From a virus: 64,000 nucleotides of DNA. Both the position numbers and the translations under genes were made by a program. Location of the stretch: positions 96,001-160,000 of the IMG/VR virus record IMGVR_UViG_3300045988_167206; one strand, written 5' to 3'. Below the pieces are notes generated by a model. The model had not been told where the DNA came from. It saw only the letters and a list, made by a program, of their open reading frames with translations, and ran no database searches. This document shows positions 17,147 to 35,430 of the stretch, one piece after another. Position 1 is the first letter of the stretch; each line of letters starts with the position of its first letter.

Positions 17147-17159
17147 AAATGGCCTAAAA

Positions 17160-18296: not shown

Positions 18297-18314
18297 TATT
18301 TATTCACCCCTTCC

Positions 18315-18779: not shown

Positions 18780-18816
18780 TTTTTTTAGCTCCTTTCATAT
18801 TTTTAGGCATAAAAAT

Positions 18817-18861
18817 AAGATCAGAATTTCTGATCTTAAATAAAGTTAAATAAAACTAACT
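18817..18861 (-). promoter_or_regulatory. conserved 18-nt block plus hairpin just after the scaffold-like gene stop
   Basis: Plus-strand AGTTAAATAAAACTAACT (18844-18861), then the hairpin AAGATCA/TGATCTT with a T-run on the minus strand. Confidence 0.5.
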
Positions 18862-18885
18862 CAACAATATAAAAATTACTTATTT

Positions 18886-20436
18886 TTATTTGACAGAAAA
18901 TAAAGAACCGAATTTATTCTTTTTCTGTGTAGATTTAACATTTGCAAGACCAACTTTTGCAGCTGGTTTCTTTGTATTAACTGGTTCTTCAATTGCAGAA
19001 AAGTTAAGTTTTCCAGCTTTTGCGTAAGACAAAAGAATACCATCTAATTTTTCTTTTAACTCATCTACTGTAAATTCCTTATGATCGTTCATAAGAGTAG
19101 TGAATTCTTCAGTCTCTTTGATTCCTTTATAGTCATCTATTGCAAATAAAGCATCCTTATTTGCATCTTCCTCAGCCTTTTCGTATTTCTGCAGTTTCTC
19201 AGAAATAGCAGCATAATTTGAACGCATACTCTGAAGTTCAGAATACTCAGAATCCGTTAAAAGTTCACGATGAAGATTATATCTTTCACCATCAAAAGCA
19301 ACATTATCACCATCTTTTGTATAGTTCTGTCCGTAGATTTTATCTCCATCCCAATTTTCATATGTAAAATGAGAGTCATATACTGAATTAATAAAATACC
19401 ATTCATTATCAGCTTCTTCATAAGAATCAAGAAGAGTATAAAGCGCATAACGAATATCACTATGAGATAACTCAAAAGATTTTACAAAATTCTCTGGTTC
19501 CTGTTCTGGATTATTTTCTTCGAATGCTTTAGCAAAAGCAGATTCCAGTTCTTCATCTGATAGATCTTTATATTCAAATGTAACATCTTCTACGGTTTTA
19601 CCGTATTTCTGTAAAAGTTCTTCAAATTTATTCACCTGATTCTCCTCCTTTCCTTCAGCATTATTTATATTGAAATTAGAGAGAGTAGTGTTAATTTTCT
19701 CTAATGTTTCAACCAATTTAGAATTAATATCAAAATCTACATACATAGAATTTTTCTTAGAATCAAAATCAGCAAGCTGAACATTACTTCCGGCCATACC
19801 TGGTCCAACATTTTCATTAAGAAGAGTAAGCCCACCTACATAATAATCATCAAGGTTTAATACTTTATCTTTGGCATTAAATGACAACTCGCGAATACTT
19901 AATTCAACACTACAATCAACTTTTTCTCTTCGTTCCATAATATCGACAGCATCCTGGCAATATCCTTCCCAAAGATAACCTTGAATCATAGCTCTGTTTA
20001 CACCGGCTTCTTTATCATATTCAATACTATAATCTTTCTTAATTACACCAACTGGACGTTCCTGATAGATAAATGTTTCATTTCCGTCTTCATCTGTCTC
20101 GACAGTAAAATCATGGGATCCGAAATCTTTGTTTCCGTCAGCATTTTCAATAATGTTAGCCAAGATTGGTCTATATGGAATCGATTGAGTATTTTCCTCA
20201 AAGACATCTTCATTAATATTAGATTTATTTAAATTTACATGATCGTGATAGGCAGCTGCGACAAATGGCTTTAAGCCTTCTGTATGCTTATTATCATCAG
20301 ATTCTCCAAATGTAGCTACGGCAGGCATCTGAACACAAATTTCTGCGTTTGATTCTTTACTGCTAAATTTTGCAAAATTATTTTGTATACAAAATTCAAT
20401 TAAATCGTCAATAGTTAAATATTTCTTTTTAATCAT
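18886..20436 (-). CDS. putative scaffolding or prohead-processing protein (516 aa, acidic coiled-coil C-terminal half)
   Basis: Lies between portal and capsid. The C-terminal half is E/K-rich. Function inferred from position only. Confidence 0.5.
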   Translation of the reverse strand: MIKKKYLTIDDLIEFCIQNNFAKFSSKESNAEICVQMPAVATFGESDDNKHTEGLKPFVAAAYHDHVNLNKSNINEDVFEENTQSIPYRPILANIIENADGNKDFGSHDFTVETDEDGNETFIYQERPVGVIKKDYSIEYDKEAGVNRAMIQGYLWEGYCQDAVDIMERREKVDCSVELSIRELSFNAKDKVLNLDDYYVGGLTLLNENVGPGMAGSNVQLADFDSKKNSMYVDFDINSKLVETLEKINTTLSNFNINNAEGKEENQVNKFEELLQKYGKTVEDVTFEYKDLSDEELESAFAKAFEENNPEQEPENFVKSFELSHSDIRYALYTLLDSYEEADNEWYFINSVYDSHFTYENWDGDKIYGQNYTKDGDNVAFDGERYNLHRELLTDSEYSELQSMRSNYAAISEKLQKYEKAEEDANKDALFAIDDYKGIKETEEFTTLMNDHKEFTVDELKEKLDGILLSYAKAGKLNFSAIEEPVNTKKPAAKVGLANVKSTQKKNKFGSLFSVK

Positions 20437-20454
20437 AGTTCCTCCTTTCTTTGA

Positions 20455-20486
20455 GTATAAAAATACTCCTCAAATAGAAGAGGAGT
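20455..20486 (-). terminator. rho-independent terminator
   Basis: Stem ACTCCTC/GAGGAGT followed on the minus strand by ATTTTTAT. Confidence 0.5.
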
Positions 20487-20488
20487 GA

Positions 20489-20677
20489 TTAAATACATAA
20501 AGTATTTGTATATACAAGGCCACTTAAATTATTAAATAGCATCTTGGCATCATTTAAAAAAATCCATTGATCTCCATCTTGTTTTAATAATTTAAAACCA
20601 GTTTTTAATAAGAGATCTGCGGATTCATCATTTTTAGTAATTATAAATTTTGATTCATTATTTATCATATAATTCAT
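20489..20677 (-). CDS. hypothetical protein (62 aa)
   Basis: Small ORF between the portal and scaffold-like genes. Confidence 0.45.
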   Translation of the reverse strand: MNYMINNESKFIITKNDESADLLLKTGFKLLKQDGDQWIFLNDAKMLFNNLSGLVYTNTLCI

Positions 20678-20682
20678 CCATC

Positions 20683-22266
20683 CTAATTTTTCTTATCTTG
20701 TTTATCTCTACTTGCTTCGCCATCGTCAGTAATACTCGAATCATCTTTTGTAGGTGCACCTCCAGTATCTGAAGAGCCAGACTGAGTATATGATGTTTGA
20801 AGAGGAACTAAAAGTCCTGATAGTCTAAGAACTTGCTCTTCTAAGAAATTAAGTGCAAGAGTATCTTTTTCAGAAAATTGATTTAAAGTATTATAAGCCA
20901 ATTTTGTCGGAAGTCCGTTTTGTGCACCAACCAATAATTCTTGTTTGAATTCACCTTTTGTGTAGGCACTCACTTCAAAAAATTTAACTTTGGCAGGAGT
21001 GGATACCCAATATGTTAAAAAGCGATTGACCCATCCCTGGGTCTCCGGCAATAACATTGAAATTGCCATTTCTGTATCAGCTTTTACCGCAGCTGAAAAT
21101 GCTGTGGTTCCAGAAATGCTTGCACTGTTTAATATTTGTGCACCACCAGAACTATTAAATAAAGTTTCTGTGGATTTTGCTATTTTATTTGTATCGGTAG
21201 CTTTGTCGTTATTAAATGAAATTTGATCAAGTTTACCAGGAATAATGGCAGCGGAAGTATATTCAGGTAAAGCCTCGCTGATCATCCTATTAAAGTACTC
21301 AATAACAATATCTGGTGTAATTTTCCAATCATCAACGTTATCACTGCCAGTAATCGTTTCAAGCTCTAACCAAATCATTTTGTAAATGTCTTGCTGATCT
21401 GCAATTGCCTGTAAATCATCAAGATCAATAAGATTAATAATTCCAGAAAGTAATCCAGAAAATGGAGGAACAACAGTTTCCCAATCTTCAGCTCTGGCTT
21501 TTAAGCATACCGCATATTCATCTGGCATAGGTTGCCATTTTCCATTTGTTGTATCGTTTTCATATGCGCGATACATTGATTGGAATGGTTCTCCCCATAA
21601 TTCAAGGACAGTCTGCCTTGATCTAAAATAACTCATATCCATTGAGAAAGCATAATCTCCAGTATTATAAGCTCCGGAAATTTTACAATAATCAGGATCA
21701 AGTGGGAGAATAAATAATCCTTGATCCTCATCATAAAATGCACATCCATAAAATACATCTTCACGGAAGCATACCATATAAGCTTTTAACATTTCATATT
21801 GAAGATGCATCTTATCAAGAATATTAAGTGTATCCTGGTAAGATGATAACATAGCATTGGCATCGCCACCATTTACTAAATCATAATCTGGGATAACTGA
21901 ACGAGCGTCCAAACAGAACATATTTGCATTATAAGCAATCAATCTGTAATAAGCATGACATCTATAATACAAATACCTAGAAAGATTTCGAAGGTTCTTT
22001 TCATTTGAACCGATATTTTTAAGATAAGTTCTGAGACTATCCTTACTGAATGCAGTAATAGTAGTAGTGCTTGTCTTAGTAACATCTCTAAGTCCTCGTG
22101 CACCCTCCATTGCAGCAGCATAATTTTCAATATCTCTATGATTTTTTGAGTACCAATCTTTAATTTCAGCAATTGAACTTTGCTGAGTAGGTGCCGGGTC
22201 CAACTTTTTAGCTGTTGGAACCTTGCTATTAGCACTAATTCGTCTTCTTTTCATTCTTTGTGCCAA
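20683..22266 (-). CDS. putative portal protein
   Basis: 527-aa ORF immediately downstream of the terminase large subunit, with an acidic C-terminus. Assigned by synteny and size. Confidence 0.6.
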   Translation of the reverse strand: MAQRMKRRRISANSKVPTAKKLDPAPTQQSSIAEIKDWYSKNHRDIENYAAAMEGARGLRDVTKTSTTTITAFSKDSLRTYLKNIGSNEKNLRNLSRYLYYRCHAYYRLIAYNANMFCLDARSVIPDYDLVNGGDANAMLSSYQDTLNILDKMHLQYEMLKAYMVCFREDVFYGCAFYDEDQGLFILPLDPDYCKISGAYNTGDYAFSMDMSYFRSRQTVLELWGEPFQSMYRAYENDTTNGKWQPMPDEYAVCLKARAEDWETVVPPFSGLLSGIINLIDLDDLQAIADQQDIYKMIWLELETITGSDNVDDWKITPDIVIEYFNRMISEALPEYTSAAIIPGKLDQISFNNDKATDTNKIAKSTETLFNSSGGAQILNSASISGTTAFSAAVKADTEMAISMLLPETQGWVNRFLTYWVSTPAKVKFFEVSAYTKGEFKQELLVGAQNGLPTKLAYNTLNQFSEKDTLALNFLEEQVLRLSGLLVPLQTSYTQSGSSDTGGAPTKDDSSITDDGEASRDKQDKKN

Positions 22267-22286
22267 AGATTCAGCACCTCCTTCGT

Positions 22287-24341
22287 TTAATCATCAAACA
22301 TAGATCCAATTCGTCCTTTACGAATAGTAAGAAGCTGCACTAGAGATTTGTCAGCAGTTGGACGTTTCTTATTCGTAATAAATTTTCTACGCTCACATTG
22401 AAGAGCATAAGAGCACATTGCTGTTACATAAGCTCTATCATCATGAAGCTTAGTACGTTTTTCCGGACATAATTCAAAAGAGTCTTTTCCAGACTCTCGT
22501 TTAATACGGATCATATTTACAAGTTCTTCTTTTGTAGCATCAATACTAGCAAGTGATTTTTGTTCTTGCCAGCTTAATTTTTCTATTTTACTTTTTACAT
22601 TTTGTAAATTATTCAAATCCTTCTGAACATTATAATCAATGTCCTCTGGACTCATTTTTTGTTTTTTATATTTAGCTTCAAGCTCTTTTTTAGCCTTATC
22701 ATACTTATCTTTGTCGATATCAAAAATAGTAAGATAATCTTTTCCATCATAATCTGCCGTAAACCCAATTTTATCCTGATTCATCAACTCAATCATTGCT
22801 TCATACATTTCTGATTTATATTGAGTAGGAGACATAAGATGAATTTTATTTACTGCATTTGGGAATTTTTTAACATATTCTTCAGAATATTCTTTATCAA
22901 TTAAACCACGATGTTTTTTTCCATCTTTACCTTTCCAGTCAGGCATAAGATAATCTGCAATATTTACACCTGCTCCACCAGATCCAGCATCAATATAAAT
23001 TCCTAAAATATTGCTATAGGAGTCATCGCCGCCTTGATTATAATCAAGAATAACTTCTTTTAAATAATCAACTTGATCAGGAGTCTGCATAGGTGTTTTT
23101 CGCTTAGTTTCAATATCAATGAGATTAATACAATTTAATAATTTCATTTTGTATTCTGAATCACCATTTTGATCTTTATCTACGTATATTTCTGCTACTA
23201 AAATAACAGAATTATCTCGACTACGAGCAGGGTCATAAGCTATAACAATTTTTCTCTGTCCGGTATCATTATACAAAATAGGTCTTCTTATCTCAGAATT
23301 CCTTGCAATAACACCTCTTCGAATAATAGCATTTGCTCCAGCGTCAGAAGTGAACTCACAGTAATATTCTCTACGAGCTTTTTCAGGATTTGAACGCATA
23401 GCTGCCTCGACTGTAGATTTCGTAAGAAGCGGAGCCATAACTTGGCCACGAATTGTAGGTCTGAATGCAACTTCACAATCAATATGAGCGACAAAATAAT
23501 CTGGATCGCCCATAAGCTGCCTTTTACTAAAATCTCTATATAACTTATAAAATTCTGTATCTGTAGAAGAAGCAGAAGAGATATAAAATAATTGGTTTGG
23601 AATATTCGATGGAATACATCTTAGACGGTTTATATCAATAGAATTACCATCACGGTCTTTACCAGATTTGAAACTTTTATTAACAATTGCGAATGCGCCG
23701 TAAGTCTGAAGCATTTCATCAGAAAGCCATCCACATTCATCAAAGATTACATTACCACGCATTCCTCTTTTTTTATCAATATTACTATTAAGTGTTTGAG
23801 TAAATGCGCCATTATATAAGCTATATGAAAATCCATTAGAAGAGTGGCTAAATCCATCTCCGGCAGCATTCTTTATTTCAATTTCTGCCTTAAATATATA
23901 ACCTGTAGAACCAAGCATGGTATCAATATTATCATTCGCAATTCTTTCAAGTGTCGTAAAGGTTTGTTCAGCCTGCGATCCCGATCCTGAAGCAATGTAT
24001 GTCCAATAGTTATTAAATAGCATATCTTTGGCCATTACCATAATATCTATTAGTGTAGATTTTCCAAATCCACGGGTACAAACCAATAATACATTTGGAC
24101 AATTCCAAGATCGTTGAATAATCCATGCCTGAGAATCTAACAATTCAATATTAAAAAAATCATTTATAAAACGTACTGGATTACATTGATAATATTTTTG
24201 GAGATTTGCAATTTTTATAAAGCCTTCCAGTTTTCTGGACGACATTGGATAAACTCCAGGTTTTACAAAAATCTTATCTCCTTGTTCGCAATAATCAAGT
24301 TTCGGAAGCCGGTTCATCCGTCTCGGATCCATCATCGGCAT
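22287..24341 (-). CDS. terL: terminase large subunit
   Basis: Walker A-like VCTRGFGKST, Walker B-like NVIFDECGW, a C-terminal nuclease-size domain, and position upstream of portal. Confidence 0.85.
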   Translation of the reverse strand: MPMMDPRRMNRLPKLDYCEQGDKIFVKPGVYPMSSRKLEGFIKIANLQKYYQCNPVRFINDFFNIELLDSQAWIIQRSWNCPNVLLVCTRGFGKSTLIDIMVMAKDMLFNNYWTYIASGSGSQAEQTFTTLERIANDNIDTMLGSTGYIFKAEIEIKNAAGDGFSHSSNGFSYSLYNGAFTQTLNSNIDKKRGMRGNVIFDECGWLSDEMLQTYGAFAIVNKSFKSGKDRDGNSIDINRLRCIPSNIPNQLFYISSASSTDTEFYKLYRDFSKRQLMGDPDYFVAHIDCEVAFRPTIRGQVMAPLLTKSTVEAAMRSNPEKARREYYCEFTSDAGANAIIRRGVIARNSEIRRPILYNDTGQRKIVIAYDPARSRDNSVILVAEIYVDKDQNGDSEYKMKLLNCINLIDIETKRKTPMQTPDQVDYLKEVILDYNQGGDDSYSNILGIYIDAGSGGAGVNIADYLMPDWKGKDGKKHRGLIDKEYSEEYVKKFPNAVNKIHLMSPTQYKSEMYEAMIELMNQDKIGFTADYDGKDYLTIFDIDKDKYDKAKKELEAKYKKQKMSPEDIDYNVQKDLNNLQNVKSKIEKLSWQEQKSLASIDATKEELVNMIRIKRESGKDSFELCPEKRTKLHDDRAYVTAMCSYALQCERRKFITNKKRPTADKSLVQLLTIRKGRIGSMFDD

Positions 24342-25596
24342 CTACCTCATCTTCTAGTGACCCAAAGCAAGAATATAAGTCATTTAGATCAACTAAATCT
24401 GTAGGTTTAATCAATCCTTCTTCTTGCATATAATCTTTGAGATCAATATTTTCACGTAATAAAATACGTGAAATTTCTTTATAATTATCTAAATCAGTAC
24501 GTAAATTTGTGATCATTTGTCGCTGTTCTGCAACCATATCAGACCATTCAGATTCATCTAGACGTAATGCCTTTAATATAGAAGCATTACTCATATCCAT
24601 TACTTGTTGCATGCCTCGACAAGTTCCAATATCAAATCCGTTAACCTCACCTTCGCGAAGATTTAAGTCTTTTATTTTTTTGATTTTTCCGGTCCATGTA
24701 TTTTCGCCCTTTTTGGCATTTTTATTATTCTTTAAAGAAATACAGCTTTCAGCTGCCAAATCTTTTATAATAGTAGTTAGATCTTTTTTACTTTGCTGTA
24801 GGGATTTTATTGTAGCAGAATTATTTTTTAATTTATGAATATCAGACATATATGTAGAAATAGCATTGTCAATTTTAGACTGCTGAAGAAATGCTCGCAC
24901 AATAGAAATAGCAGAAGCAGTACGCATCATATCATCATTGGCATCTTCACTTGAATCAAGAAGTCCAAGTAATTGAGAATATAAAAACGGCTGATCAGAA
25001 ATAGCTTCTTTTTCGAATGGATCATAGCCAAGCAATCGAACTACATCATTTTTATTTTTCGTAAAACTACTATATGTATCCTGATTTTCACGACCTTTTA
25101 CCACATCGTCTGTAGTTTTTTCATCTTCATATACAATTTTTTCTTTGAATAAGTCAGAATCAGAAAATGTGTATCCGATATATTGTGGCATCGAAACATT
25201 TTTTATATACGAAGTCCAAGCATTTGTTTTGGATTTTCCTGTGATAGAATTTTCTGATTCTTGAATACTAGAATTGTAAAGACTTTCATAGAATGGTTTA
25301 TTTAGATATCTGAGAGCTTGAATAATAGATTCTTTTGTTGGTTCATGTTCTTCACCATTAACATCAATTCGTAATGCAATTTTTCTTGCACAATCCATGC
25401 AAATTGGAGAACATCCTGATTCACATAACGGATCGGTATTTTTATAAAATTTATCTTTTTTTTTAGGTTTTCCACATAGAAAACACCAAGCAGTGTTTTC
25501 TTTATAATTATTATTTTCGATTTCTAATTCTTTAATTCGGTTTCTCATTTGGGTCGGAGTCATCTTGACTTGCCCAGTTTCTTTTGTTGCTGCCAT
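24295..25596 (-). CDS. hypothetical Zn-ribbon protein upstream of terL (possible small terminase or packaging accessory)
   Basis: 433-aa ORF with CFLCGKP...CESGCSPICMDC. Function inferred from position only. Confidence 0.55.
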   Translation of the reverse strand: MAATKETGQVKMTPTQMRNRIKELEIENNNYKENTAWCFLCGKPKKKDKFYKNTDPLCESGCSPICMDCARKIALRIDVNGEEHEPTKESIIQALRYLNKPFYESLYNSSIQESENSITGKSKTNAWTSYIKNVSMPQYIGYTFSDSDLFKEKIVYEDEKTTDDVVKGRENQDTYSSFTKNKNDVVRLLGYDPFEKEAISDQPFLYSQLLGLLDSSEDANDDMMRTASAISIVRAFLQQSKIDNAISTYMSDIHKLKNNSATIKSLQQSKKDLTTIIKDLAAESCISLKNNKNAKKGENTWTGKIKKIKDLNLREGEVNGFDIGTCRGMQQVMDMSNASILKALRLDESEWSDMVAEQRQMITNLRTDLDNYKEISRILLRENIDLKDYMQEEGLIKPTDLVDLNDLYSCFGSLEDEVDADDGSETDEPASET

Positions 25597-25620
25597 AACA
25601 ACTCCTCCTTGTATTCGTAA

Positions 25621-25695
25621 TGGATATAGTAGGACTCGAACCTACAAAAGCCTGATCCTAAGTCAGGTGCGTCTGCCAAATTGCGCCATACATCC
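25621..25695 (-). tRNA. tRNA-Leu(TAG): tRNA-Leu-like, anticodon UAG, lacking the long variable arm
   Basis: Cloverleaf: acceptor GGATGTA/TATATCC, A73, anticodon stem CCTGA/TCAGG with loop CTTAGGA, 5-nt variable loop CTTTT, T arm GTAGG-TTCGAGT-CCTAC. The D arm TGGCGCAATTTGGCAGACGC resembles tRNA-Leu. Confidence 0.75.
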
Positions 25696-25769
25696 AGAGA
25701 AGGACAGTAAAGACTGTCCTGTAAAGAAATGTATAATATAAGCAGCAACGCCACTCGTATTATTTAAAT

Positions 25770-26957
25770 TTAATTTAATTTATATTTATGTTCGTCAACA
25801 ATACCATCGGTTTTATCAAATACAAACATTGATGCACCGGCATTAGCTGTTTTTCCAAGAGTCTCACTATATGGATTAAGTCCAATTATAGATCGAACAC
25901 TTATTGCTTCTGAATTTACTCCACCTTCTTCTGAAAATGAAGAGTGCCAATGTCCACTAAATAAATAATCAAATGGTACTTTATACATTTTTGATAAAGA
26001 TTTTAACTTGTCATTTAACTGCTTAGTCTCAAAATGTCCACCAATACAAGTGTGGCAAGCAAGTTGCGAATAAGCTAATCCTGTTGGATTTTCAATAATA
26101 GTGATATTATCATTGCCTTTTAATCTAGCTTTAATTAAGGTAAGCATGGATTTACTCATATCCTCATCCTTAAATGCGTCTTTTGGCTGCCCAACTAAGC
26201 GTAGCTGATTATGATTTGACCTTTTTACCATCTGAAATTTGATAATTACATGTTTACTTAATTCATTGAGCCATTCTGAAATAAAATTTGCATACAAAAT
26301 AGAAGAGTCGATAACTCCATATTTTAGAGTCATAAGCTGTGAATTAGCCCTTAAAATTCCTTCTAAAGCATCACCAAGATCCCAAATATGTAAAACCTTA
26401 ATATCGTCTTTATCAATTTGCTCTACTACTTTATAATATAATTCCCACATTCGTTGCTCAAAAATTTCAGGGCTATATTTATTAAGTGTATACCCGTAAA
26501 TATCTTTAATATCAAATTCAACGCCATAATGTGCGTCAGAAATAACTAATAAATAATCTTTACTGGTTACAAAAGGTTTAGTGATTATATTTTTAGGTAA
26601 TGTAACAGGTTTAATTTTTTCAATCGCTTCAACAATTTTTTCCGTAATTAATTCATCACGAGAGTATTCTCGTAACCATTTATTAAATTCTAATTTTTCA
26701 CTCTGAAGTTTAATGCGTTCTTTTTTAATAGCTAATTCTTCAGGTAAAGTTGAAATAGAAGAGGATGGGACAATATCCCATCCTGCATCTACATATTCTA
26801 ATAATAATTTTGATCCTTTTCGTACAGTATCACGGTGTTCTGTTTCTCCAAGTGCATCTGCTCTAAAATCAGTTATATCTTGCCATTCAATTGAAGGATC
26901 TATTTGTTTACGCTTAATTAAATCAAGCTGTTGCTGTAAAAATTGATTGTTATCCAT
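25770..26957 (-). CDS. calcineurin-like metallophosphoesterase
   Basis: Motifs LVISDAHYG, HIWDLGDALEG, RSNHNQL and SGHWH. Confidence 0.75.
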   Translation of the reverse strand: MDNNQFLQQQLDLIKRKQIDPSIEWQDITDFRADALGETEHRDTVRKGSKLLLEYVDAGWDIVPSSSISTLPEELAIKKERIKLQSEKLEFNKWLREYSRDELITEKIVEAIEKIKPVTLPKNIITKPFVTSKDYLLVISDAHYGVEFDIKDIYGYTLNKYSPEIFEQRMWELYYKVVEQIDKDDIKVLHIWDLGDALEGILRANSQLMTLKYGVIDSSILYANFISEWLNELSKHVIIKFQMVKRSNHNQLRLVGQPKDAFKDEDMSKSMLTLIKARLKGNDNITIIENPTGLAYSQLACHTCIGGHFETKQLNDKLKSLSKMYKVPFDYLFSGHWHSSFSEEGGVNSEAISVRSIIGLNPYSETLGKTANAGASMFVFDKTDGIVDEHKYKLN

Positions 26958-26965
26958 ATTTCTCC

Positions 26966-27214
26966 TTAAAGTTTCATTCCATCGGTTGCAGATCCAGAGA
27001 TTTCATCCAGATCAATAGTTTCTTCTGTTTTAGTAGTAGTAGATAAGTCAAAAGGCATATCTCCATAAGCCTTTTTAAAAATTTCATTGATGTCGATAAT
27101 TTCACCTGTACTATCAACAAGCTGATCATCTACCACATGTAGTCCTTTAAGTTTTCCATCGTATTTTACAGTTTTTTTTAATTCCATTATTTTTCTCCTT
27201 TTATTCCTTGACAT
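26966..27214 (-). CDS. hypothetical acidic protein (82 aa)
   Basis: ORF with SD; no family recognised. Confidence 0.5.
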   Translation of the reverse strand: MSRNKRRKIMELKKTVKYDGKLKGLHVVDDQLVDSTGEIIDINEIFKKAYGDMPFDLSTTTKTEETIDLDEISGSATDGMKL

Positions 27215-27269
27215 ATTGAAATAATCAATATAAAATGTTATTAGTGAAAGTTTACAATAAAATGTCTTA

Positions 27270-27872
27270 TTAAAGAATATCGTCTAATTCAAGATCCTGG
27301 CCAATAATTCCATCGACAATTCCACGTTCTTTAGCTTCTTCAGCAAACATATAATATTCACGATCCTTAATTTCTTCAAGAAATTCTGCAGTCATATTTG
27401 AATGTTCGATCATAAACTTATTCATACGCTCTTCAAGTGTGTCATAGAATTTCTGAATATCTTTTCCTTTATTTGAAGAGCTGATGTATCCTGTTTGTCC
27501 ATCATGATGAAGAACTACGGTTCCCGGGAAACAATATCTTTTATGTCCAGCTGCTAAAATATAACAAGCCATAGAAGCACACCTTGCAAAACCTATTGTT
27601 ACAATAGGTGTTTTAGACGTACAGATAGTACCTAATACCTGATAACCACATACGACATCACCGCCGCAGGAATTAATATATATATAAATTTTTTTTCGTT
27701 TACTAATAGGAATATCTTTATCTTCTTTATTCCATTTCATAATCATAAGACATACATTTTCAATGACATTATCATCGATATCCTCATTCAAAATGATTTT
27801 ACGTTCATTTAAATGTTCTTTTATAATAGCATCATAAATGCAATCATCATCTTTTAATGTAAATAATTCCAT
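27270..27872 (-). CDS. ClpP-family serine protease-like protein
   Basis: INSCGGDVVCGYQVLGTI...IGFARCASMACYILAAG...VVLHHDGQ aligns with the ClpP Ser and His motifs. Start moved to MELFTL behind a GGAG. Confidence 0.75.
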   Translation of the reverse strand: MELFTLKDDDCIYDAIIKEHLNERKIILNEDIDDNVIENVCLMIMKWNKEDKDIPISKRKKIYIYINSCGGDVVCGYQVLGTICTSKTPIVTIGFARCASMACYILAAGHKRYCFPGTVVLHHDGQTGYISSSNKGKDIQKFYDTLEERMNKFMIEHSNMTAEFLEEIKDREYYMFAEEAKERGIVDGIIGQDLELDDIL

Positions 27873-27903
27873 TTTATTTTCTCCATGTTTTCCTAAATAT
27901 ATT

Positions 27904-29349
27904 TTATAATGCAACAACCATATCTTTAACAGAAGCGACTACTTTAAATGTTTTATCTTCTTTTGATATGGCATCTTTCAAATCTTTTTTTAAACTATTT
28001 TTTGCTACTTCAGATCCATGTACTAAAATCAATTTTTCTGTATTAATTTTAGATCCATATGTAATAAGTTCATTTCGATTTGCATGACTTGAAAATGTTC
28101 CAAGCGATATACAATCTGCTTTATTTTCAACACCATCTCCACTGATCTTTATAATTTTGTTTTCCTTATAGTTTTTTATTCTATAAGACAAATAAGAGTT
28201 GTCGGATCCAGTGTATCCACTAAAAATAACCATACTATTTTCATCGCTGAGATATTCATGTAAATAAGATAAAATACGTCCGTTTGTACAAAATCCAGAA
28301 CTACTTAATATAATTTTAGGCCGATGATCTTTTACAATTGCCAAAGAGTCTTCTTTTTCACGAATAAAATGAACTTTATTCCATCCTACAACTTTATTCC
28401 ATAGTTTTAACTCTTCTTCAGATAAAAGAGTAGAGTATAAGTCACAAATATCACATGATAATATAGAATCAACTATAATATCGTAATTAAATGAAATATC
28501 ATGATAGATATTGTACAAATTAGTAAGAATTTCTTGAGTCCTACTAAAACTAAAGCATGGCATAATAACAGATCCACCACGTTCAGTTACGGTATCAATC
28601 GCAGTTTTTAAATGATCCAAATCGAATTTTCGAGTCTTTTTATTTATTCGTCCTGGTTCTCCATATGTAGATTCCATAATTGTAATTTTGTTAAAATCTG
28701 TTGGAATTTCTGTATTATGAACATAATGATTTTTGGTATTTAAAGAACCAATATCAGAAGTGTATAAAATAGATTTTGAAACACCATTTTGATCTCGAAG
28801 CGTAAGCTGAAGCTGTCTAGCTCCAACACAATGACTATTCTCATACCATTTAAAAGAAACAATATCGTCAAGAATATACTGTATATGTAACTCATCATAT
28901 TCAACAATATATTTCAAAGTATTCATAACATCATTTTCTTCATAGATAGGAGAGTAGTTTCGTTTATATTTAAATGATAAGGCGTTTGCTTCACTAAATA
29001 AAATAAAAGCACAGTTATAAAGTAAAGGCTTCATAAGTTGTGCAGTAGCGTGTGAAGCGATAATTTTTCCAGTAAATCCTTCTTTAACTAATCTTGGTAG
29101 CAACCCAATATGATCAACATGAGTATGGCCAACAAACACATAATCAATTTCAGAAGGCTTAAAAGGAAATTTGGCAGAGTTTATATTATATGATTCAAGA
29201 TAATTGTTATTTTGGTAAAGACCGCATTCCAATAAAATCTTTTTTCCATTAAACTTAATATAAATACAACTGCCGGTAACATCGTTGGCATTTTGTCCAA
29301 TTAAATAAATGCCATCGTCTTTTTTCTTTTTGCTGATATCCAACACCAA
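27904..29349 (-). CDS. beta-CASP metallo-beta-lactamase-fold nuclease (RNase J/CPSF-like)
   Basis: HxHxDH motif (VGHTHVDHIG), a C-terminal SSHANRNEL beta-CASP His motif, and the typical 481-aa size. Confidence 0.8.
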   Translation of the reverse strand: MVLDISKKKKDDGIYLIGQNANDVTGSCIYIKFNGKKILLECGLYQNNNYLESYNINSAKFPFKPSEIDYVFVGHTHVDHIGLLPRLVKEGFTGKIIASHATAQLMKPLLYNCAFILFSEANALSFKYKRNYSPIYEENDVMNTLKYIVEYDELHIQYILDDIVSFKWYENSHCVGARQLQLTLRDQNGVSKSILYTSDIGSLNTKNHYVHNTEIPTDFNKITIMESTYGEPGRINKKTRKFDLDHLKTAIDTVTERGGSVIMPCFSFSRTQEILTNLYNIYHDISFNYDIIVDSILSCDICDLYSTLLSEEELKLWNKVVGWNKVHFIREKEDSLAIVKDHRPKIILSSSGFCTNGRILSYLHEYLSDENSMVIFSGYTGSDNSYLSYRIKNYKENKIIKISGDGVENKADCISLGTFSSHANRNELITYGSKINTEKLILVHGSEVAKNSLKKDLKDAISKEDKTFKVVASVKDMVVAL

Positions 29350-29628: not shown

Positions 29629-29711
29629 TGGGAAGTGATGGAGTTGAACCACCCGAGTCTTTCGACAACAGATTTACAGTCTGCCCCGCTACCCCTACGG
29701 TATAACTTCCC
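29629..29711 (-). tRNA. tRNA-Tyr(GTA): tRNA-Tyr (GTA), class II
   Basis: Acceptor GGGAAGT/ACTTCCC, anticodon loop CTGTAAA, long variable arm, T loop TTCAACT. Confidence 0.85.
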
Positions 29712-29859
29712 TTGTTTTCTTTACTTTTTCATCTTGGCTGAGGATTTGTGCCCTCCAACCAAAGATATAGTCTGTGTACTTTAGACTGCCATTTACTTTA
29801 CACTCTAAATGGTCAAAACGTAACCGAGGCTGCTGGCGCGACCAGTGCATGTCAGTTAA

Positions 29860-29931
29860 CACACCCTCAAGGACTCGAACCCTGTTCTACGGTTTTGGAG
29901 ACCGTCATAATACCACATATACCAAAGGTGC
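29860..29931 (-). tRNA. tRNA-Trp(CCA): tRNA-Trp (CCA)
   Basis: Anticodon stem ACGGT/ACCGT with loop CTCCAAA; T arm CAGGG-TTCGAGT-CCTTG. Confidence 0.8.
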
Positions 29932-29941
29932 AAAAAAATAA

Positions 29942-30023
29942 CGCCGTGCACACGATTCGAACGTGCAAGTCCTTTCAGACCAACAGTTTTCAAGACTGCT
30001 CCCTCACCACCCGGACACACGGC
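29942..30023 (-). tRNA. tRNA-Ser(TGA): tRNA-Ser (TGA), class II
   Basis: Acceptor GCCGTGT/GCACGGC, loop CTTGAAA, long variable arm, T arm GCACG-TTCGAAT-CGTGT. Confidence 0.8.
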
Positions 30024-30030
30024 ATAATAA

Positions 30031-30103
30031 AGCTGAAATAGAGACTTGAACTCTAAACCTGCTGATTACAAATCAGCTGCTCTGCCAATTGAGCTATTCC
30101 AGC
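30031..30103 (-). tRNA. tRNA-Thr(TGT): tRNA-Thr (TGT)
   Basis: GCTGGAATAGCTCAATTGGCAGAGC..., anticodon loop TTTGTAA, T loop TTCAAGT. Confidence 0.85.
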
Positions 30104-30169
30104 AAAATCCGTCTTTCCGGATTGTCAGACCGAGATACCAGTCATTTACTAATTAAATTTTAAACTTGC

Positions 30170-30198
30170 TTGACAAAAATATCCAATAATGGTATTAT
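30170..30198 (+). promoter_or_regulatory. near-consensus sigma-A/sigma-70 promoter firing antisense to the tRNA operon
   Basis: TTGACA (30170-30175), 17-nt spacer, TATTAT (30193-30198). Confidence 0.7.
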
Positions 30199-30360
30199 CC
30201 CATTCGTTAGAGGTCGAGAATCCCAAAAGGATTCATAGGAAGATAGTGCAAACTGGACTCCGTGGTAAACCAAGCAATATACAACGGTTATTATACGGCC
30301 GCCTTTATGGGCAGATTTTAGCTCATGTGCCTCCAATCGGTAGGAGAGGAGGTTTTTACT

Positions 30361-30441
30361 ATGAATGATTATATTACATATATTATTCTAGGACTTGATG
30401 CACTCGTATGGGTGCTGAAGGTTATTAAAACATTTTGTTAA
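30361..30441 (+). CDS. 26-aa hydrophobic peptide MNDYITYIILGLDALVWVLKVIKTFC (type I toxin-like or small membrane protein)
   Basis: GGAGG SD 8 nt upstream of the ATG, one predicted TM helix with a basic C-terminus, its own promoter and terminator. Below the ORF-track length cutoff. Confidence 0.55.
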   Translation: MNDYITYIILGLDALVWVLKVIKTFC

Positions 30442-30500
30442 TTTCTTGTTGTTGAGCTTGGCGGGATAATAATTCCATTATTGGATTAATCATAGTAGTA

Positions 30501-30537
30501 GAAGCTGCATCCTGCAGCTTCTTTCTTTGTGTTTTTT
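30501..30537 (+). terminator. rho-independent terminator of the mini-ORF transcript
   Basis: 9-bp stem GAAGCTGCA/TGCAGCTTC, 3-nt loop, then TTTCTTTGTGTTTTTT. Confidence 0.8.
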
Positions 30538-30632
30538 GATATGCTCCCAATCTAAAAGACCTGAGGTCTCCCAGGAAGGATTTTCACCTTCGAGTTCCCA
30601 GCATGGTGGGCGGTAACTGTTCATATCTTTAA

Positions 30633-30717
30633 CGCAAAGCAGAGTATTCGAAACTCAATCCAATAAAGGATCGCATGACTTAGCAGGTCAGCTCCGTGCC
30701 TCACGGATTTACTTTGC
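30633..30717 (-). tRNA. tRNA-Ser(GCT): tRNA-Ser (GCT), class II
   Basis: Acceptor GCAAAGT/GCTTTGC, D stem TCCG/CGGA, loop CTGCTAA, variable arm ATCC/GGAT, T loop TTCGAAT. Confidence 0.75.
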
Positions 30718-30785
30718 AATTTTAAAGGAGAGGGAGGATAAAACCTCCCCAGAAAAAAGAAAGAGGTAGTAACTATAACAAATCA

Positions 30786-30815
30786 ACAAAAAAATATTGA
30801 GTGTAAAACACTCAG
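30786..30815 (-). terminator. rho-independent terminator immediately 3' of tRNA-Leu(TAA)
   Basis: Minus strand: TGAGTG-TTTTA-CACTCA followed by ATATTTTTTTG. Confidence 0.65.
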
Positions 30816-30901
30816 TGCTATCTGTGGGACTCGAACCCACACTTCGTGTTTCAGAAACAGGATTTTAAGTCCTGTGCGCCTGCCAGTTACGCCAAGATAG
30901 C
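30816..30901 (-). tRNA. tRNA-Leu(TAA): tRNA-Leu (TAA), class II
   Basis: Acceptor GCTATCT/AGATAGC, A73, loop CTTAAAA, 17-nt variable arm, T arm GTGGG-TTCGAGT-CCCAC. Confidence 0.85.
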
Positions 30902-30912
30902 ATTTATTTATA

Positions 30913-30985
30913 AGCACTATATGAGAGTCGAACTCATATCATCTGATTGGAAGTCAGATATCATGTTCCGTTAAACCAATAGTGC
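30913..30985 (-). tRNA. tRNA-Gly(TCC): tRNA-Gly (TCC)
   Basis: Acceptor GCACTAT/ATAGTGC, loop CTTCCAA, T loop TTCGACT. Confidence 0.85.
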
Positions 30986-31016
30986 ATCGGCAGGGAAGCG
31001 GAATTCTGCCTTCTAA

Positions 31017-31036
31017 TTCTCTTATTACCTACTAAA
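31017..31036 (-). repeat. 20-nt spacer block, copy 1
   Basis: Plus-strand TTCTCTTATTACCTACTAAA; 18 of 20 nt identical to 31267-31286, exactly 250 nt away. Confidence 0.6.
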
Positions 31037-31140
31037 TTATAAAGAGCCATGGTTTTATAAAATTTCGGATCCTCTGTAGAAAGAGGATAACATTCTTTAT
31101 AATTACTCATTCTGAGATTATACTTAGTACTTCCCCAAAT

Positions 31141-31209
31141 AGCGGAGGCTGGATTTGAACCAACGTCTCTAGAGCATGAATCTAGCAAGGAACCGCTCCT
31201 CTACTCCGC
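31141..31209 (-). tRNA. tRNA-Met(CAT): tRNA with CAT anticodon (elongator Met or Ile2), short D loop
   Basis: Acceptor GCGGAGT/CCTCCGC with two mismatched inner pairs, anticodon stem CTAGA/TCTAG with loop TTCATGC, T loop TTCAAAT. Only 69 nt long, with G at position 37. Confidence 0.65.
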
Positions 31210-31266
31210 GTTATTCGTATATTTATGGTAGAACTATATCTATGTCGTCTTACAACATACAGCATG

Positions 31267-31286
31267 TTCACTTATTGCCTACTAAA
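31267..31286 (-). repeat. 20-nt spacer block, copy 2
   Basis: Plus-strand TTCACTTATTGCCTACTAAA. Confidence 0.6.
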
Positions 31287-31390
31287 GATTTCGTACTTAA
31301 ACCCGATCAGGAATATAATAAAATCACTCGGTTAACACATGCAATTATATTCCGTGTACCTATCTACACCAAACTTTCAGGCACCATAGT

Positions 31391-31462
31391 TGGAATGACG
31401 GGATTTGAACCCACAACGTCTTGGTCCCAAACCAAGCGGACTGCCAAGTTGTCCTACATTCC
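31391..31462 (-). tRNA. tRNA-Pro(TGG): tRNA-Pro (TGG)
   Basis: Anticodon stem CTTGG/CCAAG, loop TTTGGGA, T loop TTCAAAT. Confidence 0.85.
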
Positions 31463-31471
31463 AAAATTAAG

Positions 31472-31544
31472 CTCTCCCAGCAGGACTCGAACCTGCGACA
31501 CAACGGTTAACGGCCGTTTGCTCTACCAACTGAGCTATAAGAGA
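31472..31544 (-). tRNA. tRNA-Asn(GTT): tRNA-Asn (GTT) with C instead of U at position 33
   Basis: TCTCTTATAGCTCAGTTGGTAGAGC..., anticodon stem AACGG/CCGTT, loop CCGTTAA, T loop TTCGAGT. Confidence 0.75.
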
Positions 31545-31583: not shown

Positions 31584-31859
31584 TTACGCATTTACTGCTT
31601 CTTTGATCTGTTTTCCAAATTTACATCTTACAGCATTTTTAGCATCGACCATTACAGTTTCACCTGTTCTTGGATTACGAGCTGTACGAGCATCCTTATG
31701 TACTGTAGAAAGTGTAACGCCATCCATCAGTTTAACCTCATCGCCTTTTACAAGTGTATCAAATGTAACTGCCTGGATAGCTTCCATAACGGACTTAATA
31801 TCCTTCTGTGTAAATCCTGTCTTTGTTGCAACTTCTTTAATCATTTCTACTTTGTTCAT
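31584..31859 (-). CDS. hup: HU/IHF-family DNA-binding protein
   Basis: MNKVEMIKEVATKTGFTQKD...ARTARNPRTGETVMVDAKNAVRCKFGKQIKEAVN is a near-canonical HU sequence. Confidence 0.9.
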   Translation of the reverse strand: MNKVEMIKEVATKTGFTQKDIKSVMEAIQAVTFDTLVKGDEVKLMDGVTLSTVHKDARTARNPRTGETVMVDAKNAVRCKFGKQIKEAVNA

Positions 31860-31899: not shown

Positions 31900-31932
31900 G
31901 TGTATAATAAAAGCGGTGCATAAAACACCGCT
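31900..31932 (-). terminator. rho-independent terminator
   Basis: Stem AGCGGTG/CACCGCT followed on the minus strand by TTTTATTAT. Confidence 0.65.
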
Positions 31933-31949: not shown

Positions 31950-32288
31950 TTAGTTGAAAATATTATTTGCGATCTCAGCTCCACGATCACCAAGAATTTC
32001 ACAAGATATAATGTAAGACACAATCTCATTTCCTTCTTTGTCTTCACGTTTTACTTCGATGCCTTTACATTTTGGATTTTTACATGCCATAATGTTTCCG
32101 TGAATATAAGTCATTGGAAGACCACATGCTTTACATATATGCTTATTAACGAATGTTTTTTGCTGTTCTGCAAGCTTTTCGCTATCTCGTGTCTTTTTGA
32201 TGACTGGTTTCATTCCCCAACCTTCTCTAAGAGCAGCTAAAGATGTGTAATGTTCAGTAGTTCCCTTTGACATTCTATAGTTGTTCAT
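31950..32288 (-). CDS. Zn-ribbon protein (112 aa)
   Basis: CKACGLP...CKNPKCKG, with a good SD (AAGGAG). Confidence 0.6.
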   Translation of the reverse strand: MNNYRMSKGTTEHYTSLAALREGWGMKPVIKKTRDSEKLAEQQKTFVNKHICKACGLPMTYIHGNIMACKNPKCKGIEVKREDKEGNEIVSYIISCEILGDRGAEIANNIFN

Positions 32289-32562: not shown

Positions 32563-35430
32563 TTAGAGCAACTTTTTTTTTGATATTCTGCAGTTTTTCC
32601 GGAAATTTTGCAAAAATGCATTTTTGTCCATTCTATAAAGAAGATTTAAAAGATTGCGAGTGTATCTTGAATAATCTTTCTTTTTTCCTCTTGTACTTGT
32701 ATTCAAAGCAATTTCAATTAAACGGCTCATTGTTTTCGGATTAGAAATTTTCATTTTTCGTAAATCAGTTAAAATTTCTTCAAATCTTTCTGTATAAGCC
32801 ATGATATCATCGTCAGACATATCATCTTTACTCAATTCATCTAATTCTTTGGCATAATTAATAATTTTTTCCATTTGTCTGTGATTAGCCTTTCCAGGTA
32901 CATCAACGATAAATTCTTTTATAGGAATAGCATCTTTTTGTGATGCCGGTGCAATCTCATTTAATATTCTTTCAAGAAAATTCATAGGACATATATAATA
33001 GGAAGAAACTCTGTTATAAAGTTTGTTTTTCTGTTCCATAACAATCTCTCTATCAATTTCTTTACCATTTTTGGTATAAGCAATTTTTCGTGTAAACTTC
33101 ATAAATTCCGGGAAATCTCGTTTTATTTTTTTCACATTTCCATCTTTATCAGTAATCTCTTCAACCTGGCACATACATGGCAACCCCTTTATTCGTTTAA
33201 TTTCTTCTATAGCGTCAACTTCATACTCTCGTTTACATCCATCAATAATAACCTGGGCTAATACAGAAAGAATCACAAAATTATCGTATAATTCTTTGGA
33301 TGGTTCGGTCCAATAGTATGTCATAGCAAGCTGTGCTAAGTTACTAGATTCTCCGATACCAATACGTGATTTTGCAAATTTGTTATCCATACGAGCATAT
33401 TCCTTCATTGTATTCTTATAGGTAAGACCACTTTCTTTAAGTTTGTTCACTATAGTAGGATATTTTTCGTATGCGGCTTTCGCACTTTTTACCATTACTG
33501 GATTATTGGTCACAAAGAAAAAATCGGAATCAAAATCACATCCATTGGCACGATCCTGAATATCTGTTTCGATACAGTTCACAAACATAATGTTGTTACT
33601 TATCTTAAAATAACGAGATAATTCAGGACTATAATGATTATGTAAATAGCAAATGTTATTTGGACTATTATGTGGATTTCTGATACCACATAGATATTCG
33701 CCATCATCAAAACGAGTAGTATAACACTGAATTGTTCCAGGCTCCGGGCGAAGAGTGGGATCTGACTCCGGATCTTCACCAACTGCTTTTAATAAAAGTG
33801 CATATGGATTACCAAAAATCGTAAGATTGTCGCCGTCTATAGTAATTTTACCGTTACGAAGTCTATTTACATAGTTACGAAGAATCTGCCTTTTCTCGTA
33901 TCTAAACCAAGTACTATCACCAAATTCATAGTCCTGGTCATATAGATCTGCTAACATCTCATAATGGTTTACTATAGTAGCATTTTTTCTCAGGAACCGC
34001 TCGAAGATATCATTTTCCAGCTTCATATCTTCAACATAATCAACACTGGTTCTCGCCAATTCACGTACTTCAGACATTCCACAGCATAATAATTCACTAT
34101 CTTCTTCATAAGATGGGAGAGTATTGATCATCTGATAGCTCATCTGCTGAACGCTGCCTAATTTACTTGGATGATCAGTTTTTACCACGCCCCAGTAGCT
34201 TCCGTCTGCATCAACACGATCACACCAATATTTATAGGCCGCTTCAGGTGTTTTTCCCATCAAATCCATGAATTTCTTCCATTTAATGGCATTATCAGTA
34301 GTGATCATCTTAATATCTTTGAGTTTGTGTGATACTCCGAACATATCTTTAACTTCATATGTTTCGTAGTCTAAATCATGTTCCTCGCACCAGTCCTTAA
34401 AAAATAGCTGCAATTTACTTTTGATTGCACATGCCTTAAAGAAATGTTGCCTGAGCAACGCCATACCATTGATCCATTTAGGTAAAATAGAGATATCTGC
34501 AAGAGCAAGTCCATCATGTAATGTATTTTTTACCTCTGTCTCTTCATCAGAAACAACACATTTTTTCTTTGTTACCGGCACCATTTTATATCTCCGGCTG
34601 AATTTAGGAGTAACACCATCTTTTAAAAATTTCTTCTCTCGAATAGCTTTTTGTTTTGCTGCTTCAGTAGCTTCTTCATCAAGAACCTTTTCGTATGCTA
34701 TATATTCTTCAGCTTTTACTATTTTAGCCATAGTCTTAAAAAAGCTATCAGTGTCCTTTAGAATCAAAATATCTCTAACAGGGCAATAAAACTTTCCTAC
34801 TATGGTAGAAGTAGTAAGAGGAGCATAAGCAGACATCTCTACAATTTTTGCATTATCAATAGGCATTTTCTTTCCGAGTCCCATTGTAAGCCAATCATAA
34901 GACTTCTTATATAATTTGCTATTGATAAACATTACCTGGCCGATCTTAGCTTTAGAGGAGTTACGATACAGCATTTTATAATTAATAGTCTGGCTTTTTT
35001 CACCATCTTTTTTAGTGTATTTCGATTTATATTCTATGTTAACTCCTTGATCATAGAACAACTCACGTATTTCATCCTTAGATAATTTCCAATAATTATC
35101 TTTATTTTTTTCTACATTATCAAATATCTGCTGGATTTTTTTCTTTGATTCCGCTGTAAGAGAAGCATCATGTTTAAAACCTTTAAATTGTTTACGTAAA
35201 TGATCAAGTTCTTCTTCGTAACTTCTGCTACCAAAATCAAAATCCAAACAGATAATATCTCTAGTACTCGTATCATTCCAAACATTAAGGCCATTTTCTC
35301 TAATCCAATCATAAAACAGACTATTGCTAAACATTGCTTCAGTCGAATCATAATGATCACGAACTCCCTGATTACAACCAAATAGAGTACCGGCTTTAAT
35401 ATTCCGTATTTTTAAACCAAATTCAGACAA
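32563..35430 (-). CDS. YonO / RdRP-like single-subunit two-barrel RNA polymerase candidate (955 aa)
   Basis: GIRNPHNSPNNICYL then, about 40 aa later, ANGCDFDSDFFFVTNNP (DFDSD = nt 33523-33537). This parallels the RNPxxHPGD...GGDbDGD catalytic segment of YonO/cellular-RdRP-type polymerases. N-terminal MLYRNSSKAKIGQVMF and MSAYAPLTTST resemble upstream RdRP-family blocks. TTG start. Confidence 0.55.
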   Translation of the reverse strand: MSEFGLKIRNIKAGTLFGCNQGVRDHYDSTEAMFSNSLFYDWIRENGLNVWNDTSTRDIICLDFDFGSRSYEEELDHLRKQFKGFKHDASLTAESKKKIQQIFDNVEKNKDNYWKLSKDEIRELFYDQGVNIEYKSKYTKKDGEKSQTINYKMLYRNSSKAKIGQVMFINSKLYKKSYDWLTMGLGKKMPIDNAKIVEMSAYAPLTTSTIVGKFYCPVRDILILKDTDSFFKTMAKIVKAEEYIAYEKVLDEEATEAAKQKAIREKKFLKDGVTPKFSRRYKMVPVTKKKCVVSDEETEVKNTLHDGLALADISILPKWINGMALLRQHFFKACAIKSKLQLFFKDWCEEHDLDYETYEVKDMFGVSHKLKDIKMITTDNAIKWKKFMDLMGKTPEAAYKYWCDRVDADGSYWGVVKTDHPSKLGSVQQMSYQMINTLPSYEEDSELLCCGMSEVRELARTSVDYVEDMKLENDIFERFLRKNATIVNHYEMLADLYDQDYEFGDSTWFRYEKRQILRNYVNRLRNGKITIDGDNLTIFGNPYALLLKAVGEDPESDPTLRPEPGTIQCYTTRFDDGEYLCGIRNPHNSPNNICYLHNHYSPELSRYFKISNNIMFVNCIETDIQDRANGCDFDSDFFFVTNNPVMVKSAKAAYEKYPTIVNKLKESGLTYKNTMKEYARMDNKFAKSRIGIGESSNLAQLAMTYYWTEPSKELYDNFVILSVLAQVIIDGCKREYEVDAIEEIKRIKGLPCMCQVEEITDKDGNVKKIKRDFPEFMKFTRKIAYTKNGKEIDREIVMEQKNKLYNRVSSYYICPMNFLERILNEIAPASQKDAIPIKEFIVDVPGKANHRQMEKIINYAKELDELSKDDMSDDDIMAYTERFEEILTDLRKMKISNPKTMSRLIEIALNTSTRGKKKDYSRYTRNLLNLLYRMDKNAFLQNFRKNCRISKKKLL

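Follow-up and report, generated by a model that had tools for sequence, protein, structure and literature searches.

A YonO-family single-subunit RNA polymerase gene next to the late module of a predicted SPbeta-like gut phage

The polymerase gene, its family and its active site

We analyzed a 64,000-nucleotide (nt) stretch of viral DNA (positions 96,001 to 160,000 of IMG/VR record IMGVR_UViG_3300045988_167206, called the window in what follows), which carries on its minus strand a 955-amino-acid (aa) open reading frame (ORF) that we assign to the YonO family of single-subunit, two-barrel RNA polymerases (RNAPs), to which YonO of phage SPbeta belongs. Downstream of this gene lie an ORF for a small zinc-ribbon protein, a terminator-like hairpin, a gene for an HU-type protein, an array of tRNA genes, and a late module with structural genes (Table 1). 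A preliminary description, made from the sequence, had reported the ORF and proposed its relationship to YonO, and the ORF is present exactly where it had been placed. An AGGAGG sequence lies 11 nt 5' of the TTG start codon, and homologs align with the protein from residue 1 onward. Direct translation puts DFDSD (D632, D634, and D636) at 33523-33537, RNP (R584 and P586) at 33673-33681, with a spacing of 45 residues between the two motifs, and DG...RQHFFK at 34435-34515, which confirms the motifs and the residue numbering given earlier.

The protein matched PHROG 8308 (E=1.3e-83, residues 105-945), the family that SPbeta YonO matches over its full length (E=0, 1220 bits, positions 2-847 of 847) and that a protein of Enterocloster phage PMBT24 matches at 2e-95. 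We compared a family alignment of the query and 103 diverse full-length members (104 sequences, alignment A1) with YonO using hhalign, which returned a match of 99.0% probability (E=2.7e-18) over 500 aligned columns (query 148-781, YonO 138-659), with the DG, R-x4-K, R-x-P-H, DxDxD, and IGExSN blocks in register. A scan of 1.84 billion representatives gave 1177 clusters at 50% identity with an E value of 1e-3 or better, and the clade of this polymerase holds more than 3000 proteins at 90% clustering. A Pfam search with the query found no family at E=0.01 (the best was a sub-threshold Replitron_C match, E=0.08), and the curated Pfam model for RNA-dependent RNA polymerases (RdRPs) was unmatched. 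A phmmer search of the PDB with the query returned noise only (antibody chains), and the whole-family profile had no PDB hits. Nothing can be read from these Pfam and PDB negatives, since YonO too lacks a Pfam match and a PDB sequence match; there is also no deposited structure of YonO. Membership in the YonO branch of the two-barrel RNAPs is supported by these results, and the protein is a new member of an already known family, not a new kind of enzyme. Descriptions of YonO-like proteins of Firmicute prophages date from 2003-2010, and by 2010 the catalogue included those from the genomes known at the time as Bacteroides capillosus and B. pectinophilus (PMC2919709). Relatives of the polymerase already carry polymerase labels in GenBank. 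B. capillosus and B. pectinophilus are in fact Clostridia.

Two-barrel RNAPs have eight universal residues, with D709, R738, K743, R962, and P964 among them in QDE-1 (PMC2919709). Their counterparts in the query are D306, R327, K332, R584, P586, D632, D634, and D636, all of which are identical in SPbeta YonO and in the PMBT24 protein. Seven of the eight are invariant in A1, and D632 is at least 90% conserved. When YonO and the PMBT24 protein were included (106 sequences), the only 100%-identical columns of the first barrel were D306, G307, R327, K332, and K383, and the only invariant columns in a cleaner alignment of the second-barrel segment with the same two proteins were R584, P586, D632, D634, and D636. 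This conservation is far more than chance would give. The spacing from R to K in the first barrel is 5, as in QDE-1 (R327/K332 versus R738/K743), and DxDxD was found in every full-length representative among the matches listed (80 of 106). The preliminary description had singled out the Ser in DFDSD as a departure from the usual Gly, a point that the wider family overturned: within this clade Ser is the usual residue at that place in the triad loop, position four, where G, T, A, L, or V also occur, so that Ser is a tolerated clade feature and not an anomaly. The same description had likened three blocks upstream of the triad to conserved RdRP-family motifs. These blocks are indeed conserved within the family (Y151, R156, and G164; Y202 and L205; K383 and K386), but R156 and G164 are specific to the clade, and the actual first-barrel catalytic residues (D306-G307, R327, and K332) had been missed.

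An AlphaFold2 model computed on A1 had a mean predicted local distance difference test (pLDDT) score of 93.8 and a predicted template modeling (TM) score of 0.90. Foldseek searches of the PDB with this model placed maize and Arabidopsis RDR2 and QDE-1 at ranks 1-21, matched over the whole chain (E 3.8e-12 to 4e-8, probability 1.00, TM 0.40-0.47), followed at ranks 22-25 by the Thermus phage RNAPs P74 gp62 and P32 gp64 and then by marginal matches to Rpb1 of Pol II (E ~0.2). Among unrelated folds, none reached an E value below 1 in this search. In BFVD, a database of viral predicted structures, the best matches were gut-phage proteins labelled as RdRPs (TM 0.71) and then P23-45 gp64, and the virion RNAPs of phi14:2 and crAss-like phages matched weakly (phi14:2 gp66, E 0.04-0.05, TM about 0.1). 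A short second-barrel profile recovered QDE-1 and RDR2 from the PDB in the correct register (RSP...DYDGD) at E=0.14-1.4, below a false positive, the PB1 domain of Cdc24, and serves as a register check only. The strands of the first barrel in the model span residues 281-303, 308-312, 323-328, 331-338, 359-361, 367-369, and 375-378, and the model elements around the insertion are a strand (228-250), a helix (252-264), and a strand (281-303). A single 955-aa ORF encodes the residues of both barrels, and the two predicted double-psi barrels of this chain would together form one active site. The two-barrel identity proposed in the preliminary description is thus borne out by profile homology, predicted fold, and the eight universal catalytic residues. 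The checks it had suggested gave a profile match to YonO and PDB matches to two-barrel RNAPs, and no search assigned the protein confidently to an unrelated fold.

Table 1. Features of the polymerase gene and of the DNA downstream of it, in window coordinates
Feature	Position	Strand	Basis or remark
YonO-family single-subunit two-barrel RNAP gene, 955 aa	32563..35430 (stop codon included)	minus	ORF, TTG start
Insertion of ~48 residues (~241-290), tip of long beta-hairpin arm	34561..34710	minus	Absent from YonO and PMBT24 (three-way alignment, hhalign gap)
First (beta-type) double-psi barrel region, ~residues 281-378	34297..34590	minus	Boundaries from predicted secondary structure
First-barrel residues D306-G307; R327; K332	34510-34515; 34450-34452; 34435-34437	minus	Translation and alignment
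Second (beta-prime-type) double-psi barrel region, ~residues 530-641	33508..33843	minus	R584-N-P586 and D632-F-D634-S-D636 (putative Mg-binding)
Zinc-ribbon protein, 112 aa, CKACG...CKNPKC	31950..32288	minus	Between RNAP gene and terminator
Intrinsic-terminator-like hairpin and T-run, ends RNAP unit before HU	31912..31932	minus	Terminator scan
HU-type DNA-binding protein, SPbeta yonN counterpart	31584..31859	minus	PF00216 (E=4e-24); tblastn to yonN (E=1e-11)
Nine tRNA genes and embedded 711-nt conserved noncoding stretch	29629..31544	minus	ARAGORN
Late/structural module, downstream	4005..29349	minus	tblastn, PHROGs

Genomic neighborhood and carrier phage

The late module encodes a beta-CASP RNase, a prohead protease, yonJ-, yonG-, and terminase (yonF)-like proteins, a portal, a yonD-like protein, and a yomI-like tape measure protein, with the portal and prohead protease identified by PHROG matches. 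Comparison with SPbeta by tblastn gave collinear matches in the same orientation to yomI, yonD, yonF, yonG, yonJ (1e-45), and yonN, with E values from 1e-45 to 6e-8, and the gene order of RNAP, HU, yonJ, yonG, terminase, yonD, and tape measure is the order in SPbeta. The terminator-like hairpin also has an equivalent there, an annotated stem-loop between yonO and yonN, and the position of the tRNA array is taken in SPbeta by the start of YonO transcription and a noncoding RNA (ncRNA). The 112-aa zinc-ribbon protein had no Pfam or PHROG match. We considered whether its ORF is a split-off C terminus of YonO and rejected this idea, which remains speculative, as there was no sequence similarity (E=0.6).

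ORFs of the window at 37-64 kilobases (kb) had no tblastn match to SPbeta positions 1-125 kb, and the ORF at 62662-63636, considered as a homolog of MrpR/YopR, showed no similarity to SPbeta. Since the early arm lacks similarity to SPbeta, the phage does not belong in the genus Spbetavirus, even though it has the late module and the RNAP-HU pair in common with SPbeta. The preliminary description had seen no other RNAP or sigma-like gene in the window. This held for approximately 30 of the larger ORFs, searched against Pfam and PHROGs, and the small ORFs were scanned non-exhaustively.

Ruminococcus sp. AM36-2AA carries, at 388.7 kb of a 499-kb contig, a homolog 76% identical to the polymerase, which, given its position inside a contig of this length, belongs to an integrated prophage. 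The order of genes in this prophage is Thg1, Bro-N, a 617-aa ORF, RNAP, a 113-aa ORF at the place equivalent to that of the 112-aa zinc-ribbon ORF, HU, a tRNA array, beta-CASP, ClpP, YonJ_CC, and YonG_N, the last two identified by Pfam. In a host scan of a genome collection for the polymerase, only Ruminococcus sp. AM36-2AA matched, and the closest traceable relatives of the protein come from gut bacteria and human fecal samples. The carrier is, with high probability, a temperate SPbeta-like phage whose host is a Clostridia bacterium of the gut, with Ruminococcus sp. AM36-2AA as the nearest cultured carrier.

Several further genes of the window deserve mention. RNA-handling genes flank the polymerase: the beta-CASP/RMMBL RNase is encoded at 27904-29349, a 586-aa protein with weak likeness to amidoligase_2 at 35412-37172, and a Thg1-like tRNA-His guanylyltransferase at 37888-38784 (PHROG 4717, 1e-76). 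The nine-tRNA array at 29629-31544 contains no tRNA-His. A lone tRNA-Leu(UAG) at 25620-25696 on the minus strand, between the yonJ-like and yonG-like genes, is kept in the Ruminococcus relative (20597-20676 of its stretch). An Ant/Bro-N-type anti-repressor (40479-41024, minus strand) stands at the head of the leftward operon that holds the polymerase gene, and an HNH/homing endonuclease (2479-3393, minus strand; PHROG 559, 3e-41) is found at the far end of the late arm.

A predicted role in late transcription

YonO is a strict DNA-dependent, processive RNAP that strongly prefers DNA templates, and mutation of its Asp triad abolishes catalysis (Forrest et al. 2017; PMC5467207). The enzyme is synthesized following induction, and from one start downstream of yonN it transcribes 37 late genes (PMC5467207). 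By analogy with YonO, we consider it highly probable that the protein described here is a single-chain RNAP of an SPbeta-like phage that carries out DNA-dependent late transcription. The host polymerase would transcribe its gene within a leftward early/middle operon that runs from the divergent region near 41 kb to the terminator ahead of the HU gene. The product would then act as a DNA-dependent RNAP, the late transcript would start somewhere just downstream of the HU gene, and the polymerase would read processively, in one late unit, through the tRNA array, the structural genes, and the lysis genes. We would expect the late start between the HU gene and the beta-CASP gene because the tRNA array and the late genes immediately follow HU. 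We infer that the late module may be the template of the polymerase, a reading that has positional support, as the module is collinear with, downstream of, and on the same strand as the polymerase gene.

Several observations weigh against this reading. No candidate for a late promoter of the polymerase was identified in the window. Pairwise BLASTP of the query against SPbeta YonO was not significant, which means that the transfer of function spans a large distance. The best matches among solved structures are enzymes known as RNA-dependent polymerases. The query has approximately 48 extra residues (241-290) that are not found in YonO, its triad reads DFDSD where YonO has DNDGD, with Ser in place of Gly, and the C-terminal CxxC...CxxC zinc ribbon of YonO (799-819) is absent in 110 of 110 clade members.

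Published primers for mapping the YonO start fall approximately 260-500 nt downstream of yonN (about 10335-10574 of the SPbeta stretch), within a 1.7-kb noncoding stretch, and we found no motif shared with the SPbeta YonO start region. The tRNA array at the corresponding place in the window encloses a 711-nt stretch (30104-30814, minus-strand sense) with no ORF longer than 58 aa. This stretch is about 77% conserved with the Ruminococcus relative (14930-15630 of its stretch) within one 1133-nt blastn alignment, its mismatches show no codon periodicity (39/57/55), and its predicted RNA fold has a z score of -5.6 versus 20 shuffles. Rfam models matched only tRNAs over window positions 29300-32600, and the 711-nt stretch had no sequence similarity to the noncoding stretch of SPbeta. 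We regard it as a candidate structured ncRNA, placed like the unannotated ncRNA that follows the YonO start in SPbeta. In SPbeta itself, the yonK-yonN noncoding stretch that holds the YonO start contains an Rfam DUF3800-VIII RNA (47.5 versus a gathering threshold of 40.2 bits) and a sub-threshold skipping-rope RNA (9410-9475 and 10720-10829 of the SPbeta stretch). The 112-aa zinc-ribbon protein could, speculatively, be an accessory factor of the polymerase. A fuller proposal joins these elements: the late transcript would start at or in the tRNA array, the 711-nt stretch would be the counterpart of the SPbeta ncRNA and thus a leader RNA conserved in the YonO-type late switch, and the 112-aa protein might replace the fused ribbon of YonO in a two-component enzyme. 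We judge this proposal unlikely, with a small but real chance of being right.

Whether the polymerase recognizes promoters elsewhere in the window bears on a short repeated motif, GTAAAATTTAA, which the preliminary description had offered as supporting context. The motif has 22 matches with at most one mismatch, versus 8.1 expected, and 0 of 100 shuffles reached 22. The copies of its extended consensus, ATAAW-GTAAAATTTAA, lie 20-45 nt 5' of start codons, co-oriented with the genes and without an obvious -35 element. This enrichment and placement would suit a polymerase that is promoter-specific for short early/middle units and uses ATAAW-GTAAAATTTAA as its promoter, and the two-barrel RNAPs of Thermus phages recognize, on their own, short motifs beside transcription starts (PMC10770324). 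If true, ATAAW-GTAAAATTTAA would be the first promoter consensus for a YonO-class enzyme. However, every exact copy falls within 39.9-62.3 kb (39991-62332), in arms that are early by position (the divergent region and the rightward arm). Some copies stand upstream of the polymerase's own operon, whereas the late module has none upstream of it. A -10-like hexamer, TATAAT/ATAAT, immediately precedes several copies. The motif is also absent from the equivalent 10 kb of the Ruminococcus relative with the 76%-identical polymerase, which carries another repeat, TTGCATAAAWATACA, three times in its divergent region (4847-5406 of its stretch). A comparable repeated element of SPbeta, SPBRE, occurs at about 10 early promoters, the one upstream of yonP-yonO among them, and serves as the operator for the master repressor, MrpR (PMC10516654). 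Because GTAAAATTTAA is confined to the early arms, is absent from the relative, and resembles SPBRE, ATAAW-GTAAAATTTAA is more likely a phage-specific operator or early-promoter element than a promoter of the polymerase. We give the polymerase-promoter reading a slender chance.

Other explanations concern the enzyme itself. That it is a genuine RdRP, copying or amplifying RNA instead of transcribing phage DNA, might be argued from its best structural matches, the cellular RdRPs RDR2 and QDE-1, from the annotation of the PMBT24 protein and gut-virome homologs as RNA-dependent RNA polymerases, and from the RNA-processing genes nearby (Thg1-like, beta-CASP RNase, and the tRNA array). Yet YonO, the sole characterized member of the bacterial and phage branch, strongly prefers DNA templates (PMC5467207), QDE-1 is itself described in one report as also DNA-dependent (PMC9508822), and the database labels come from automated homology transfer. 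The query matches no Pfam family, that of the eukaryotic RdRPs included, and its conserved place directly upstream of the late module fits the role of a transcriptase. We consider an RdRP activity quite improbable. Virion packaging, with the polymerase delivered into the cell together with the DNA for transcription of the first genes, as for phi14:2 gp66, N4 vRNAP, and P23-45 gp96, has less to recommend it and is in our view barely credible. The polymerase gene adjoins the structural module, its product shares a fold superfamily with gp66 and gp96, and phi14:2 and crAss proteins gave weak BFVD matches, but the structural likeness to gp66 is weak, and a terminator and the HU gene separate the polymerase from the structural genes. 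Moreover, induction precedes expression of the close homolog YonO, whose targets are late genes, and the carrier is a temperate prophage whose early arms have sigma-70-like promoters. A fortuitous motif match on an unrelated fold, such as a primase-helicase, would agree with the failure of the query to match Pfam or PDB sequences, a failure that YonO shares. Profile, fold, and residue conservation all indicate a two-barrel RNAP, and the hhalign match to YonO (99.0%) together with the Foldseek matches in the PDB refutes this explanation, to which we assign virtually no probability.

A DNA-dependent late RNAP of the YonO type is thus our preferred reading. No simpler relatives of the cellular multisubunit RNAP are known than the YonO-type enzymes, of which, to our knowledge, SPbeta YonO alone has been studied experimentally. 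The clade to which the present polymerase belongs is large, diverse, and uncharacterized, and is modelled with very high confidence. The cultured lysogen Ruminococcus sp. AM36-2AA provides a second experimental system in which promoter recognition by a YonO-type enzyme and its need for factors could be studied. The label "RNA-dependent RNA polymerase" on the PMBT24 protein (5446-7941), A0A8S5SZT9, and A0A8S5SEF1 is probably a misnomer of homology transfer and misleading, because YonO prefers DNA templates. The finding is solid but not surprising, and it leaves the picture of the family unchanged.

Comparison with known polymerases

The most distant systems that we compared with the query are the beta and beta-prime subunits of multisubunit RNAP and phi14:2 gp66, which share with it the two-barrel active site and the DxDxD metal site but gave marginal matches (Rpb1 E ~0.2, gp66 E 0.05), with no other common domains detected. 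P23-45 gp64 and P74-26 gp62 of Thermus phages (8F72 and 8F5M) are, like the query, single-subunit two-barrel phage RNAPs and matched it in Foldseek at E 5e-6 to 3e-5. They act without host sigma at phage-specific promoters (PMC10770324). Unlike the query, they have ~600 aa, reach a TM score of 0.23-0.26 on query length, and serve the early/middle genes of a lytic phage. QDE-1 (2J7N and 7Y7P) and RDR2 (7W82 and 7ROZ) match the fold over the whole of a single chain and share the eight residues and the R-x4-K spacing (PMC2919709), whereas their sequence identity to the query is 8-12%, with no significant profile match, and they are eukaryotic silencing enzymes, in contrast to an enzyme found in a phage transcription context.

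The PMBT24 protein (WDQ45559.1) is closer. It matched the query by BLASTP at 5e-18, with 25% identity over residues 356-648, a segment that includes NGCDFD(G/S)D, and belongs to the same PHROG, and in its genome RNAP, HU, and then terminase and portal follow in the same order. The differences are that this protein and the gut-virome proteins A0A8S5SZT9 and A0A8S5SEF1 have ~24-25% identity to the query over approximately a third of the protein, and that the triad loop has Gly in PMBT24 and Ser in the query. The predicted structure of A0A8S5SZT9 matched that of the query with a TM score of 0.71.

YonO of SPbeta differs from the query in length (839 versus 955 aa), and hhalign leaves 147 N-terminal and 175 C-terminal residues of the query unaligned with it. 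Where YonO has a fused zinc ribbon, the window encodes a small zinc-ribbon protein in an ORF of its own after the polymerase gene, and the predicted host is a gut Clostridia bacterium here versus Bacillus for SPbeta. The two proteins nevertheless have in common PHROG 8308, both barrels in one chain, the eight active-site residues, and an R-to-K spacing of 5, and their genes are placed alike, with an HU gene and a late structural module downstream in collinear order.

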